In this document: one piece after another, positions 27,711 through 32,000 of the stretch
Layout: each line of letters starts with the position of its first letter
Numbering within the stretch: position 1 is the first letter of the stretch
NCBI GenBank assembly: GCA_963931495.1
Contig: OZ007020.1
Span: 750,001 to 782,000 of the forward strand
Origin: an uncultured Alphaproteobacteria bacterium
Lineage (GTDB): Bacteria; Pseudomonadota; Alphaproteobacteria; Rs-D84
DNA length: 32,000 nt
Direction: 5' to 3'
Translations under genes and position numbers: made by a program
Notes under the pieces: model-generated
Database searches by the model: none
Seen by the model: the letters and a program-made list of their open reading frames with translations, nothing else
Told to the model about the DNA's origin: nothing

Positions 27711-27713
27711 CAA

Positions 27714-27747
27714 AAATCCGCCATTCGGCGGATTTTTTATTTTTTTA
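27714..27747. terminator. bidirectional Rho-independent terminator shared by rph and the small lipoprotein gene
   Basis: Stem aaatccgcc (27714-27722) pairs with ggcggattt (27727-27735) around a 4-nt loop. A long T-run follows, and an A-run lies upstream. Confidence 0.8.
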
Positions 27748-27960: not shown

Positions 27961-28314
27961 TTATATTATACCGCGAATCCAGCGAATTTTGTGCCCTGTA
28001 ACCACAATTGCGTCAAAGCGTGCATCCCCATTCCAATGTGTGCGCGCAATATAAGTTTCAGCCGCACGACGCAAACGCACAGACTGGGCCGGCGTAATCG
28101 CATCCAGTCCAGTGATAACATCATGACGATATTTTACTTCTATGAACAACAACAGATTTTTACGCTTTGCAATTATGTCAATTTCGGCACGTCCAGTATT
28201 TCGGCCGGTTGTATATCGCCGATTTACAATAAGGAATCCATGTATACGCAAATACATCCGCGCAATAAATTCGGCCCACAAGCCTGATTTATAAGAATTA
28301 AATTCCTGTGTCAT
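27961..28314 (-). CDS. yraN: YraN family (UPF0102) predicted endonuclease
   Basis: The pattern GLWAE..A..YL...G..I..RRY....GEIDIIA......L.F.EVK.R is present here as RAEIDIIAKRKNLLLFIEVKYR. The start overlaps the upstream stop as TAATG. Confidence 0.8.
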   Translation of the reverse strand: MTQEFNSYKSGLWAEFIARMYLRIHGFLIVNRRYTTGRNTGRAEIDIIAKRKNLLLFIEVKYRHDVITGLDAITPAQSVRLRRAAETYIARTHWNGDARFDAIVVTGHKIRWIRGII

Positions 28315-29099
28315 TAAAATGCGTATGGTTTGGCCTGGAAATTTTCACGTGCCGCCTGGATATTCTTGGCAACATCAGACGAATACCGACCCATGTCAAC
28401 CAAATCCAATGAACCATAATACGCCGTCATCATTGGGTCATATGCATTATTCGTTGATATCCATTTGTCTGTACCAGAATTTGGCGCACCGTATTTATCC
28501 AAGACACCTTGCCAAAATGCCAAAATTTTCTTTTCGCGCTGGTCAGCAAATTTTTCATTATCGCCTTCTATATCATTAACATCATTGTTATACAGAACAC
28601 GCCATACGACGTTATCACTGGCATTACTGGTAAAATACACAACGATTGTTTCACCGGTTCTTTCGCGTACCAAGTGTAATTCGGACGCATACATCAGTCC
28701 CCTGTCCCGCGCCAACGTATTAATGCATTGTTCCAGTTCATCTGGGGCGACAATACCCTGCTGGCGACACTCGTAATCCAGATTATATTTCCATTCTTTT
28801 TGTATTGAATAAATAATACTGTCTTTTTCACGCGGGCTGTATAATCCCTTGGCCTTAAAGAACAGTGTTTGAATGTCTTCAAACGACGCCCCCAGCATAA
28901 TCCCAGCAATATCAAAATTGCTGACTGTTATTGGCTGGGCCCCGATATTCAAACTGACCGTTTCAGCAGATAAATCACCCGTCCCGCCGTCAGTAATGGC
29001 AAAATTACTGAAATCAAAATCATCTGTGGCCGCATGTGCCCCAAACACACCCCCAGAACAAAATATTAACGCGACAAAAATTTTATATATTTGCTTCAT
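28314..29099 (-). CDS. secreted or periplasmic protein, function unknown
   Basis: The signal peptide is MKQIYKIFVALIFCSGGVFGAHA. The 261-aa product matches no motif I recognise and ends in PYAF. It is translationally coupled to genes on both sides. Confidence 0.55.
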   Translation of the reverse strand: MKQIYKIFVALIFCSGGVFGAHAATDDFDFSNFAITDGGTGDLSAETVSLNIGAQPITVSNFDIAGIMLGASFEDIQTLFFKAKGLYSPREKDSIIYSIQKEWKYNLDYECRQQGIVAPDELEQCINTLARDRGLMYASELHLVRERTGETIVVYFTSNASDNVVWRVLYNNDVNDIEGDNEKFADQREKKILAFWQGVLDKYGAPNSGTDKWISTNNAYDPMMTAYYGSLDLVDMGRYSSDVAKNIQAARENFQAKPYAF

Positions 29100-29104
29100 G
29101 TGTC

Positions 29105-29746
29105 TCAGCCTTGAATAATCTCGTTAACACGAAAATGAAAGACAGTGCACGGATCACCCCCGTTTTCAAGATAATCATGCAAAGCCTGAATGTCTATGTT
29201 TGATAACATACGCGGTTCATATGTTATATCCATAAACATTGTTCCACGTGATTTTTGCGGAATAACGCCGAAATTATTCGGGCCATTCCATGTCGTTAAT
29301 TCATAATTTACAATCCAATACGTACTGTTAACCGGACGCGTAACCCGATCAATAACACGCACAGTACGGAATGCCCTGTTCCCCGCCATTTCTTGGATTG
29401 TGCGCGCTTCGCCATTCAGCCAACTGTCAAATACCGACCGGGATGACATACGCCCCAGTGCACCATTTGCCCCCATACGACGCGCGATATTTTCAACATC
29501 TGGGGCAACATAAAAGTATTCAGTAACATATTTGCGAACCAGCAAATCCAGAAATTCCATTTCACCCATTTCTGTCGGTGTTTCGGGTGTCCCAGGACGA
29601 TGTTCTGACAAATTATTCGGTTGAAAAAAGTATGGTATAATACGCTGGGACGACGTCGCATCATATATTGCCCCAGCCAAATATATCGCCCCACCAGACA
29701 TGGCGACCAATATCAATCCTAATAAAAACAATAATATTTTTTTCAT
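29105..29746 (-). CDS. bitopic membrane protein, VirB8-like (second of a tandem pair)
   Basis: An N-terminal TM segment is followed by SQRIIPYFF, which parallels SQRIDPFIV in the upstream paralog. The periplasmic domain has a VirB8/NTF2-like block order (..KYVTEYFYV.., YWIVNYELTTW, ..DITYEP..). The ATGA overlap links it to the upstream gene. Confidence 0.4.
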   Translation of the reverse strand: MKKILLFLLGLILVAMSGGAIYLAGAIYDATSSQRIIPYFFQPNNLSEHRPGTPETPTEMGEMEFLDLLVRKYVTEYFYVAPDVENIARRMGANGALGRMSSRSVFDSWLNGEARTIQEMAGNRAFRTVRVIDRVTRPVNSTYWIVNYELTTWNGPNNFGVIPQKSRGTMFMDITYEPRMLSNIDIQALHDYLENGGDPCTVFHFRVNEIIQG

Positions 29747-30468
29747 TCGCTTATCTTGTACGCATTAAAATCCGCCACATAATATCCCATCGTTTGCGGA
29801 TATTTTTCCGTGTTACGTGCAATCTTGGCAAACGCAATCACAGATATTTCACCCGCCAAATTTGATTTTATCGTTGCCGTAACCCGCCATGTTCCACCAA
29901 CATCAGACACATTCCCCACCGGTTCCATATAGATTTGATTTTTATCAACAACCCATTCTTCGCCCAGCGCAACACGTTCTTGATACAGCGGCACAACATC
30001 GTATATAAAACGTGAAAACAATTCTTCCCCAGACACACAATACAGATTACATGTTTTATCAGAAAAAGAATATGGACTGGCGGTGCCACAGTCAACATCA
30101 CGTTCGCATGTTTGCCACATTGCGTCATTCACCTGGGCATCCCCAGATACAGAAAACCAATTAGCGGTAAAATTCCCCAGCACAGATTCTTGTAATGCCA
30201 TCTTGGCCGAATATTCAATCGGGCCATTGCCATGAGAATGCCCAACAACCGTCCATTGACCAGTTAATTTATCTATCTCTACAATAAATGGGTCAATCCG
30301 CTGGCTGCGTACCGCCCAGATTAAAATACCACATAAAAATATTACCAACAAAAACGTCACGCACGACGCAATGCCCATAAATCTGGACAACGCCACAGAC
30401 TTTCCCGCCGGGAATGCGGGTGTGTTAAAATCGCTTGGATAATCCAATGGCATCCCCCCCTGTGACAT
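29743..30468 (-). CDS. bitopic membrane protein, VirB8-like (first of a tandem pair)
   Basis: A ~30-aa cytoplasmic N-terminus is followed by one TM segment. Then comes IDPFIVEIDKLTGQWTVV, which matches the VirB8 hallmark EPYV(I/V)RVD..TG....VV. The C-terminal end is P.TMGYYVADFNAYK (compare NPLGFQVTSYR). The length of 241 aa is typical of VirB8. Confidence 0.55.
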   Translation of the reverse strand: MSQGGMPLDYPSDFNTPAFPAGKSVALSRFMGIASCVTFLLVIFLCGILIWAVRSQRIDPFIVEIDKLTGQWTVVGHSHGNGPIEYSAKMALQESVLGNFTANWFSVSGDAQVNDAMWQTCERDVDCGTASPYSFSDKTCNLYCVSGEELFSRFIYDVVPLYQERVALGEEWVVDKNQIYMEPVGNVSDVGGTWRVTATIKSNLAGEISVIAFAKIARNTEKYPQTMGYYVADFNAYKISE

Positions 30469-30475
30469 ATGGCGG

Positions 30476-30622
30476 TTATGCCTGGTACACCATGATGCAC
30501 GCGCATGGGCTTAATTTCAATTCGTTGTTATCGTAACCGACACCCACGGGTTCGCGGTCATAAATCTGGCCACATCCGGCCAGCGCCAATGCAATGAATG
30601 CACCCAGTAAAATTTTTTTCAT
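30476..30622 (-). CDS. 48-aa lipoprotein at the VirB7-like position (short ORF absent from the ORF track)
   Basis: Hand translation gives MKKILLGAFIALALAGCGQIYDREPVGVGYDNNELKLSPCACIMVYQA. The lipobox is LAGC. A strong SD (AAAAGGGGGAAAAGG) precedes the ATG. The stop lies 7 nt before the next gene's ATG. Confidence 0.7.
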   Translation of the reverse strand: MKKILLGAFIALALAGCGQIYDREPVGVGYDNNELKLSPCACIMVYQA

Positions 30623-30653: not shown

Positions 30654-30683
30654 ATTATAAGAAAAATTCGCCATCCCGGTCAA
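30654..30683 (-). promoter_or_regulatory. sigma-70-type promoter of the lipoprotein/VirB8-like/yraN operon
   Basis: The minus strand reads TTGACC (30683-30678), an 18-nt spacer, then TATAAT (30659-30654). The promoter begins 10 nt after the bamA stop. Confidence 0.6.
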
Positions 30684-30692
30684 GATATAAAA

Positions 30693-32000
30693 TCAAAACT
30701 GGGTTTCAAATGACAATAAAAAGCGCTGTTCACGGTCATATGGTGTCATTTTAATTGGCCACCCCCAACTGAAATTCATTGGCCCCATCGGCGTATTCCA
30801 ATAAATACCAACACCCGCAGATGTACGAATTGTATCATCAATATAATTTTGTATCAGTATCCCGCCATAATCATATTCGTATTCTTGTTTCGGTGGCTTG
30901 CCCAAGATTCCGTAATCAAAGAATACAAAGCCCTTGACCTGGTATTCGTCTGGGATAAATATCGGAAAGTTTAATTGCACAGAACCATTAATCTTCCATA
31001 ATCCGCCCAACGCATATGTTGAATAGTACCGCGCACGTGAACCAACACCCGCAATATCAAATCCACGCAGTGATTCCCCACCCAAGAAGTAACGATATAC
31101 ACGCGATACGTATGAATCCCCCAGCGGCTGGATTAATCCCAAATCCAATGATGCGCGCAATTGCCACCGGTCATCAAAAAACTTTACCATACCGATAACG
31201 TCCGCATTATACCGCATATATGTTTCGGTTCCACCAAATCCAGTGTACGCAATCCCCAGATTGCCGACAATGCCCGTATGGGTATTTTGTTCAAAATTCG
31301 TGTCCAGGTTATAGTACCGTAAATATGTACCAACTGTAAACAAATTTGCATTACGCCAATCTTGCCCCGTACGCATCGCAGAATACAAATCGTAATTCTG
31401 GTCAAACGCCGCCGACAAGCGCACCGTCTGGGACCAATGGTCGGTCAAACGCCACCCCATGCGCCCGGCAATGGTCAAAGAATCACGGTCATACCCAAAG
31501 CCGCCCAGTGACGTATAATCATACATTGTGTATGCAACATCAAAGCCCGCCGACAATGGCCGACCAAACAAATATGGTTCGGTGAAACTGAATAATGCCT
31601 GTTTTTGATATTGCGCCAACGATGCGCGTAATTGCACCACTTGGCCCCGCCCCATAAAGTTAGATTCAGAAATTCCTGCATCAACCATAAATCCGTTTAT
31701 GTTTGACCACCCAAATCCACCAGATAATTCGCCGGTTGGTTGTTCTTCAACCTGGATGTCCAAGTTTATCATATTTGCATCAGCAATACGATTAGGCACC
31801 ATCTGGACATTTTTGAAATACCGCGTACGCATCAAATTCTGGCGCGCTTCTTCAATTGTCTGTAATGAAAATGGATCGCCCGAACGCATCGGCACCAATT
31901 GTTCAATCACAGAATCAAATGTACGAACATTACCTAAAATATTTATATTATTCAGGTATATTCTGTTTGTGGGCTGGATTCTGAAATTTATATCAATTGT
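30693..32000 (-). CDS. bamA: outer membrane protein assembly factor BamA, C-terminal part (gene continues beyond the right edge)
   Basis: The last POTRA domain and the Omp85 barrel are visible (FLGGESLRGFD, C-terminal LLSFETQF). The reading frame stays open from 31910 to position 32000 (TIDINFRIQPTNRIYLNNINILGNVRTFDSVIEQ...), so the track's Met at 31910 is internal. Confidence 0.9.
   Translation of the reverse strand, partial: TIDINFRIQPTNRIYLNNINILGNVRTFDSVIEQLVPMRSGDPFSLQTIEEARQNLMRTRYFKNVQMVPNRIADANMINLDIQVEEQPTGELSGGFGWSNINGFMVDAGISESNFMGRGQVVQLRASLAQYQKQALFSFTEPYLFGRPLSAGFDVAYTMYDYTSLGGFGYDRDSLTIAGRMGWRLTDHWSQTVRLSAAFDQNYDLYSAMRTGQDWRNANLFTVGTYLRYYNLDTNFEQNTHTGIVGNLGIAYTGFGGTETYMRYNADVIGMVKFFDDRWQLRASLDLGLIQPLGDSYVSRVYRYFLGGESLRGFDIAGVGSRARYYSTYALGGLWKINGSVQLNFPIFIPDEYQVKGFVFFDYGILGKPPKQEYEYDYGGILIQNYIDDTIRTSAGVGIYWNTPMGPMNFSWGWPIKMTPYDREQRFLLSFETQF

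Follow-up and report, generated by a model that had tools for sequence, protein, structure and literature searches.

Diverged VirB8-like paralogues in a conserved four-gene operon of the uncultured alphaproteobacterial order Rs-D84

VirB8 is regarded as a dedicated assembly or scaffold subunit of type IV secretion systems (T4SSs). Here we describe two adjacent VirB8-like genes, B8a and B8b, together with the small lipoprotein gene (lipo48) and the secreted-protein gene (P3) that flank them, in a window of 32 kb, that is, the whole 32,000-nucleotide stretch analyzed (positions 750,001 to 782,000 of contig OZ007020.1, GenBank assembly GCA_963931495.1) from an uncultured alphaproteobacterium of the GTDB order Rs-D84. 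In this setting VirB8 is duplicated and strongly diverged, and throughout the sampled members of a lineage with ~850 genes it is locked into a small operon with non-T4SS partners, most often beside bamA. The original prediction had proposed two tandem VirB8-like proteins on the minus strand of this stretch, and both open reading frames (ORFs) lie where it placed them and are VirB8-like by Pfam (B8b through its orthologues) and by structural comparison with Foldseek.

The closest described systems are the VirB8, TrwG and TraE proteins of P-type T4SSs (PF04335). B8a and B8b share with these an N-in single-pass topology, the motif P-[FVY]-[IVL]-x-[IV]-D...TG...V behind the transmembrane segment, an NTF2-like periplasmic domain of ~140 amino acids (aa) in a total of ~215-240 aa, and a small lipoprotein gene directly upstream, and it is among these proteins that their best structural matches are found. 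They differ in having no adjacent genes for VirB4, B6, B9, B10 or B11, in their very low sequence similarity to this family, in the 4-Cys insertion and unusually conserved cytoplasmic tail of B8a, and in the tail-less form of B8b; moreover, the cassette is chromosomal, vertical and order-wide rather than part of a mobile or virulence locus. Adjacent VirB8-like inner-membrane paralogues of unequal length, thought to form a hetero-complex, are also known from DotI/DotJ (IcmL/IcmM) of the Legionella type IVB system and from TraM of R64, and both DotI and TraM are among the structural matches of B8a and B8b. DotJ, however, lacks a periplasmic domain, whereas B8b keeps this domain and lacks the cytoplasmic tail, and DotI/DotJ are encoded inside a full dot/icm locus, unlike B8a/B8b. 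The rvh system of the Rickettsiales, with its duplicated RvhB8 and scattered islands, resembles the present case in its alphaproteobacterial, genome-reduced host, its two VirB8 copies and its chromosomal, vertical inheritance, and the Rickettsia typhi VirB8-like structure 4o3v is one of the structural matches; yet the rvh VirB8 genes adjoin virB9-virB10-virB11-virD4 and are readily recognized by sequence, and no such neighbors occur at the sampled Rs-D84 loci. Finally, PilN/PilO/PilP of type IV pili offer an analogy of design, not of homology, as they comprise two single-pass inner-membrane paralogues, only one with a conserved cytoplasmic docking peptide, and a small lipoprotein, and together link an inner-membrane platform to an outer-membrane component. 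Their fold is ferredoxin-like as opposed to the NTF2-like fold of B8a/B8b, and neither pilM nor pilQ neighbors the cassette.

VirB8 architecture in a pair of diverged paralogues, B8a and B8b

B8a scores 27.6 bits (E 3.2e-6) with the Pfam VirB8 family PF04335 and so exceeds the gathering cut-off of 23.2 bits, and the match spans residues 32-118, thereby covering the transmembrane segment and the motif directly behind it in which the original prediction had seen the VirB8 hallmark of the 241-aa protein. VirB8 is matched at E<=0.01 by 32 of 37 B8a orthologues with no rival family, while NCBIfam returns a weak TrbF match for B8a and nothing else. The protein likely starts at the second ATG of its frame (position 30453), because orthologues begin there, the 99%-identical cluster P0001 measures 236 aa, and a G-rich, Shine-Dalgarno-like run precedes this codon. 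B8b from the window matches nothing in Pfam; among its orthologues, VirB8 is matched by 8 of 33 (best E 1.7e-5), one of which, P0153, exceeds the cut-off at 25.2 bits.

The topology of both proteins is that of VirB8. The transmembrane segment of B8a (residues ~31-54) coincides with a lone hydropathy maximum at residue 32 and a helix at residues 23-56 of the predicted model, whereas in B8b the lone maximum falls at residue 4, within a model helix at residues 2-31, and no cytoplasmic tail is present. The tail of B8a, which carries the motif YP..F.TPAFPAG....SR, is the best-conserved region of this protein, with a frequency of the commonest residue of 0.78 as compared with ~0.57 elsewhere. The unexpected 4-Cys insertion that had been pointed out in B8a (C-x5-C ... 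C-x3-C) is real and well kept, with C121 present in 33, C127 in 37, C140 in 36 and C144 in 37 of the 37 orthologues, and it probably forms two periplasmic disulfides; conserved Cys are absent from B8b. A further hallmark of VirB8 is an NPxG motif before the last strand (TNPGGLVVTSY in Agrobacterium tumefaciens). By-eye comparison suggests a resemblance, not an identity, to this motif at the C-terminus of both proteins, in the stretch YPQTMGYYVADF of B8a (P224 in 34/37, G228 and Y230 each in 37/37 orthologues) and in the stretch GGDPCTVFHF of B8b, where D198, P199 and F205 are invariant.

AlphaFold2 models built on the family alignments are confident (predicted local distance difference test, pLDDT, 87.0 for B8a and 83.4 for B8b), and in both an N-terminal transmembrane helix leads into a curved sheet against which further helices pack. 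When these predicted models, on which the fold assignment rests in place of experimental structures, were compared with the PDB by Foldseek, the best matches were almost all VirB8 homologues. For B8a the top matches are TrwG, CagV, TraM, DotI and VirB8 (E 1e-4 to 1e-2; target-normalized TM-score 0.55-0.70), and Tim44 is the sole non-VirB8 entry among the top 16. The first 41 matches of B8b are all VirB8-family chains, including TrwG, TraE, the VirB8 proteins of Brucella, Bartonella and Agrobacterium, CagV, IcmL-like and Rickettsia VirB8-like proteins; 35 of these have E<=1e-3, and the target-normalized TM-score reaches 0.74. The kinship of the two proteins with one another, proposed earlier from shared blocks of sequence, is borne out by hhalign, which aligns the B8a and B8b family profiles over 148 columns from the transmembrane segment into the beta-sheet (probability 87.8%, E 3.4e-6), and by the B8a hidden Markov model, which directly matches a B8b orthologue (E 1.4e-4). 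B8a and B8b are thus paralogous and diverged, and each has the VirB8 architecture: one pass through the inner membrane with the N-terminus inside, and a periplasmic domain of the NTF2-like type.

At the level of sequence, the relationship to VirB8 is remote, since neither the B8a nor the B8b family profile matches any PDB sequence and the hhalign comparison of both profiles with the single A. tumefaciens VirB8 sequence, a template too weak for such a comparison, was negative. One may accordingly ask if the likeness reflects generic convergence on the NTF2 fold, or chance, with no evolutionary link to T4SSs. Identity to solved VirB8 structures is just 7-16%, hhalign against the A. tumefaciens protein finds nothing, and Tim44 and other NTF2 proteins do appear among the structural matches of B8a, all of which would agree with convergence. 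We nonetheless consider it very improbable, because the PDB holds many other NTF2-like proteins yet the matches obtained are to VirB8, exclusively so for the first 41 of B8b, and because the single-pass topology is that of VirB8 and a curated Pfam cut-off is exceeded by B8a, with most of its orthologues also matching the family and no rival family competing. The Pfam match, in addition, includes the transmembrane-proximal motif that is specific to VirB8.

The lipo48-B8a-B8b-P3 operon and its distribution

The two genes had been viewed as a possible orphan pair. They do lack T4SS neighbors in the Rs-D84 loci sampled, but they are not isolated, as they form the middle of a four-gene operon that is fixed across the order and had been overlooked (Table 1). 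The start codon of B8b overlaps the stop of B8a by 4 nt, and only 5 nt separate the B8b stop from the P3 start; B8a and B8b, which are translationally coupled, belong to the chromosomal operon lipo48-B8a-B8b-P3(-yraN). The upstream neighbor of this operon is bamA, the frame of which remains open to base 32000, where the gene leaves the window. Downstream, a 1-nt overlap between the P3 stop and the yraN start makes co-transcription of yraN probable, though yraN likely plays no functional part in the machine.

Homologues of B8a and B8b come only from uncultured gut Alphaproteobacteria, namely Candidatus Enterousia and relatives in the GTDB order Rs-D84. NCBI annotation names one orthologue as a 'VirB8/TrbF family protein' and the remainder as hypothetical. 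A scan of one genome per species yielded 179 stretches that encode a relative, and 80 loci were kept for comparison. The order lipo48-B8a-B8b-P3 is colinear in all 80 loci with all four genes, including the most divergent ones (L083, L084 and L093). In 66 of the 80, bamA is the immediate upstream neighbor of the cassette; in nine it is upstream with an inserted gene in between, and in three it is elsewhere. P3 is directly followed by yraN in 43 of 73 loci. Because the most divergent members L084 and L093 keep the arrangement frr-uppS-cdsA-rseP-bamA-lipo48-B8a-B8b-P3-yraN, we take this order to be ancestral; L083 keeps the cassette with yraN and has lost the linkage to bamA. Each of the six larger inserts that were examined holds a hydrolase-like gene on the opposite strand. 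As this gene splits bamA from the cassette in several species, a promoter of the cassette's own is implied, and in those species the cassette must be transcribed independently. A T4SS or skp gene had been considered as the identity of the insert and was rejected. The inserted gene (L032, L045, L050, L061, L069, L073) encodes a protein of ~325-380 aa with an HGYGGSP motif and looks by eye like an alpha/beta-hydrolase.

Across loci, the identity of B8a to the window copy correlates with that of BamA (r = 0.83), which argues that the cassette is inherited vertically. Mean identity to the window copies is 87% for lipo48, 81% for BamA, 72% for P3, 53% for B8a and 48% for B8b; lipo48 and P3 are under constraint at the level of a housekeeping gene such as bamA. 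A recent mobile element or a decaying conjugative island was rejected as an explanation, given that the genes are colinear in all loci, that identities track BamA and that no relaxase or T4SS genes lie nearby. Rs-D84 genomes measure ~0.75-1.0 Mb and lack a tricarboxylic acid cycle and a respiratory chain, and a dependence on partner cells has been proposed for these bacteria (PMC12306168). In genomes of this size, retained genes are likely needed. A literature search found no published description of the cassette or of T4SS genes in Rs-D84.

Mature lipo48 is a 31-aa peptide, CGQIYDREPVGVGYDNNELKLSPCACIMVYQA, and its pattern CGQ[IV]YDREPVGVGYDNNELKLSPCACIMV[YF]QA is almost invariant across ~80 species, within a precursor that is 75-94% identical overall. 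Beyond the signal and lipobox region lipo48 matches no family; kinship with a DUF4223 lipoprotein encoded nearby, or with LptM, was rejected as only that region matches. Its size, lipobox and position agree with VirB7, although phmmer finds no sequence similarity to A. tumefaciens VirB7, a protein too short and variable for this to be a firm negative.

In P3, a signal peptide is followed by an N-terminal stretch that varies and then by a strongly conserved core of ~200 aa (residues 58-261), in which one Cys pair and the C-terminal YAF are invariant. Searches of Pfam, NCBIfam and PDB sequences with P3 gave no match, a third VirB8/NTF2 paralogue was rejected (hhalign probability below 1%), and so was, at the level of sequence, a VirB9-like protein (probability 0.7% when hhalign aligned the P3 family with VirB9 of A. 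tumefaciens). An exhaustive phmmer search recovered 120 representatives, many of which are secreted proteins of 250-520 aa from other uncultured Alphaproteobacteria, and all source-named homologues and examined neighborhoods are from this group. In these proteins the core lies at the C-terminus behind a low-complexity linker, and its last residues are [YF]-x-F; none carries a Pfam domain or an informative name. The linker is often long, acidic or Pro-rich. Judged by its sequence, the P3 core defines an undescribed family of predicted secreted proteins (homologues P0176-P0285). A profile search built on P3 and its distant homologues listed close relatives only, and the distant homologues placed in context come from matches in the representative library. 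Six loci with stand-alone homologues were inspected (L086-L089, L091 and L092), and their neighbors are lptF/G and asmA (L086), xerC and a dnaJ-like gene (L087 and L091), tatAB/tatC (L088), frd and suf genes (L089), and mlaA-mlaC (L092), with no homologue of B8a, B8b or lipo48 within 10 kb. As homologues stand alone elsewhere, P3 belongs to an independent periplasmic family of older standing that in Rs-D84 became linked with the VirB8 pair, and the cassette would offer a handle on this uncharacterized family, which is found in many other uncultured Alphaproteobacteria. At two of the six loci, the region ~2 kb upstream of the P3 homologue (L087 7869-8572; L091 7177-8422) encodes proteins of 126-168 aa that have both a signal peptide and hydrophobic segments and resemble VirB2/TrbC pilins. 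Pfam support for these is confined to the 126-aa ORF of L087 and is weak (E about 0.1), and in L087 only, a 45-aa lipoprotein-like ORF lies beside the pilin-like genes. These ORFs give a weak hint of scattered T4SS genes close to P3 in other lineages.

Possible co-option and the competing explanations

The original prediction had seen no other T4SS genes in the window, and this observation holds. Pfam or NCBIfam searches of the 38 main-ORF proteins, together with phmmer searches using VirB1-B11 and VirD4 of A. tumefaciens pTiC58 as queries, find none in the 32 kb. The phmmer search space comprised 19,755 ORFs in 1.56 Mb, that is, the window and 89 loci with up to ~10 kb on each side of the cassette. 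In the related Rs-D84 loci no homologue of VirB1-B11 or VirD4 was found within ~10 kb of the operon, in agreement with the Pfam tables of the loci, and the only phmmer match among all ORFs is a VirB11-like ATPase in an unrelated outgroup locus.

Based on the lack of T4SS neighbors in the sampled Rs-D84 loci, the extreme divergence from canonical VirB8 and the non-T4SS ancestry of P3, we tentatively favor the interpretation that a VirB8-derived module has been co-opted for a constitutive envelope function, which could be outer-membrane biogenesis or tethering, or an envelope-spanning conduit. In such a module B8a and B8b would form an inner-membrane-anchored, hetero-oligomeric periplasmic scaffold similar to the VirB8 'arches' of R388 and to DotI/DotJ, the almost invariant lipo48 in the outer membrane and the secreted P3 may connect this scaffold to the outer membrane, and the strongly conserved tail of B8a may dock a cytoplasmic partner. 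If the VirB8 scaffold has indeed been re-used for a basic envelope task, it would represent a new building block for models of envelope-spanning complexes. That the cassette is instead a piece of a working conjugation or effector T4SS is less likely than co-option, though we acknowledge that this step is the least certain of all.

Several considerations weigh against co-option. The sampled neighborhoods cover ~119 conserved gene families, or roughly 13% of a genome, so that VirB4, B6, B9, B10, B11 or D4 may lie elsewhere, as in the Rickettsiales. The order of a small lipoprotein, VirB8-like proteins and a secreted protein of ~260 aa mimics virB7-virB8-virB9 of pTiC58. VirB8 cytoplasmic tails reportedly bind VirB4 in the cryo-EM structure of R388, and the conserved tail of B8a could thus equally mean a VirB4-like partner. 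In addition, we infer the hetero-oligomer, the contacts of lipo48 and P3 and any link to BamA from gene order only.

These same points lead to a second explanation, in which the operon is a VirB7/VirB8 island, with an analogue of VirB9, of a scattered, Rickettsiales-style T4SS whose ATPases and channel subunits are encoded elsewhere and which could serve a suspected partner-dependent lifestyle. Both proteins carry the VirB8 fold and motif, the operon order is like virB7-virB8-virB9, duplicated VirB8 genes and scattered T4SS islands are known from the Rickettsiales and thereby set a precedent, and the conserved tail could bind a VirB4. The weakly supported VirB2-pilin-like ORFs ~2 kb from outgroup P3 homologues point in the same direction, as does the proposed dependence on partner cells (PMC12306168). 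If a cryptic, highly scattered T4SS were present, it would bear on how Rs-D84 bacteria depend on such cells. However, no T4SS gene lies within ~10 kb of the cassette in the related loci sampled, similarity to canonical VirB8 is very weak, P3 is not VirB9-like and is distributed independently of T4SSs, lipo48 has no VirB7 match, and secretion systems go unmentioned in the published genome descriptions consulted. We therefore hold a scattered T4SS to be doubtful, albeit the foremost of the alternatives, and consider that co-option into a different envelope machine, which the original prediction had also raised, fits the evidence somewhat better.

A more far-reaching form of co-option is that the four genes encode a T4SS-independent, envelope-spanning machine of a previously unrecorded type that is essential to Rs-D84, which we regard as unlikely. 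In such a machine, VirB8-fold heteromers would be arranged as an inner-membrane ring that P3 and the invariant 31-residue lipopeptide connect to the outer membrane, and the conserved cytoplasmic tail of B8a would be the part by which it is driven or regulated; it might serve outer-membrane assembly or tethering beside the beta-barrel assembly machinery (BAM), or contact and exchange with partner cells. If so, VirB8 would for the first time be documented as a scaffold recruited for a task other than type IV secretion.

The genomic position of the cassette raises yet another explanation, that it is an accessory module of BAM or of outer-membrane lipid homeostasis that replaces periplasmic factors missing from this reduced lineage, with the VirB8 fold acting merely as an inner-membrane-anchored periplasmic adaptor. 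The genes skp-lpxD-fabZ-lpxA usually follow frr-uppS-cdsA-rseP-bamA, and the ancestral site of the cassette is straight after bamA in this cluster. P3 homologues elsewhere adjoin lptF/G, asmA and mlaA-mlaC, and the C-terminal YAF of P3 seems to resemble the C-terminal signature of outer-membrane proteins (OMPs). Against this stand the broken linkage to bamA in L046, L047, L072 and L083, the apparent promoter of the operon's own, and the mixed nature of the P3 neighborhoods, which come from six loci only and include tat, suf and frd genes as well. To our knowledge, moreover, no BAM, Lpt or Mla component has a VirB8 fold, and we consider this explanation improbable.

Features of the window and minor observations

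Table 1. Coordinates of the cassette and adjoining features in the 32-kb window
Feature	Position	Strand	Evidence or remark
bamA, 3' part (Omp85 barrel and last POTRA)	30693..32000	-	Pfam Omp85 E 2.2e-48, POTRA
Sigma-70-like promoter match TTGACC-18-TATAAT, 11/12	30654..30683	-	in the 70-bp bamA-lipo48 gap; consensus match only
lipo48, 48-aa lipoprotein precursor, lipobox LAGC	30476..30622	-	Pfam LPAM_1 lipid attachment site E 2e-5
B8a, VirB8-like single-pass inner-membrane protein, 236 aa from likely start	29743..30453 (ORF open from 30468, 241 aa)	-	
B8b, VirB8-like paralogue, 213 aa	29105..29746	-	N-terminal transmembrane segment
P3, 261-aa secreted protein, signal peptide	28314..29099	-	matches no known family
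yraN (UPF0102, predicted endonuclease)	27961..28314	-	Pfam UPF0102 E 2.5e-18, NCBIfam YraN
Promoter-like site of the DUF4223 lipoprotein gene	27955-27927		
DUF4223 lipoprotein gene, 48 aa	27745..27891	-	MKKVMLALFAVLTLSACMGHYKQGNCEYDFLLHKDISISKWIGTATGC
Terminator-like hairpin of the DUF4223 lipoprotein gene	27712-27737		

The other genes of the window have housekeeping or envelope functions and include those for HIT, LOG, TilS, FtsH, RNase III, signal peptidase I and a ComM-like protein, as well as an ABC exporter, PBP1, OMPs, AckA, a BepA-like protease, RecG, RNase E, an MprF-like protein and RNase PH. In E. coli, yraN follows the outer-membrane lipoprotein gene lpoA, so an association of yraN with operons for envelope lipoproteins may be of old date.

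A few kb from the cassette in L001 (13.9-20.7 kb) and L084 (9.9-17.7 kb), dnaB is flanked by podovirus-like genes for a portal (Head-tail_con PF12236), for a large terminase that is split and for 'nozzle' proteins. Across 30 species-level loci the identity of the portal is 76-100%, which makes it as conserved as BamA; these phage genes are not in the window. They look like a domesticated module of the whole order Rs-D84 rather than a prophage.

Just past yraN lies a second gene for a 48-aa lipoprotein, with a promoter-like site and a terminator-like hairpin of its own (Table 1). Its product belongs to DUF4223 (E. coli YhfL-like) and is 92% identical to the copy in L001, which matches PF13978 at 7.8e-12. 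The gene recurs near the cassette in L001, L083 and L093, and its product resembles lipo48 in the signal peptide only.

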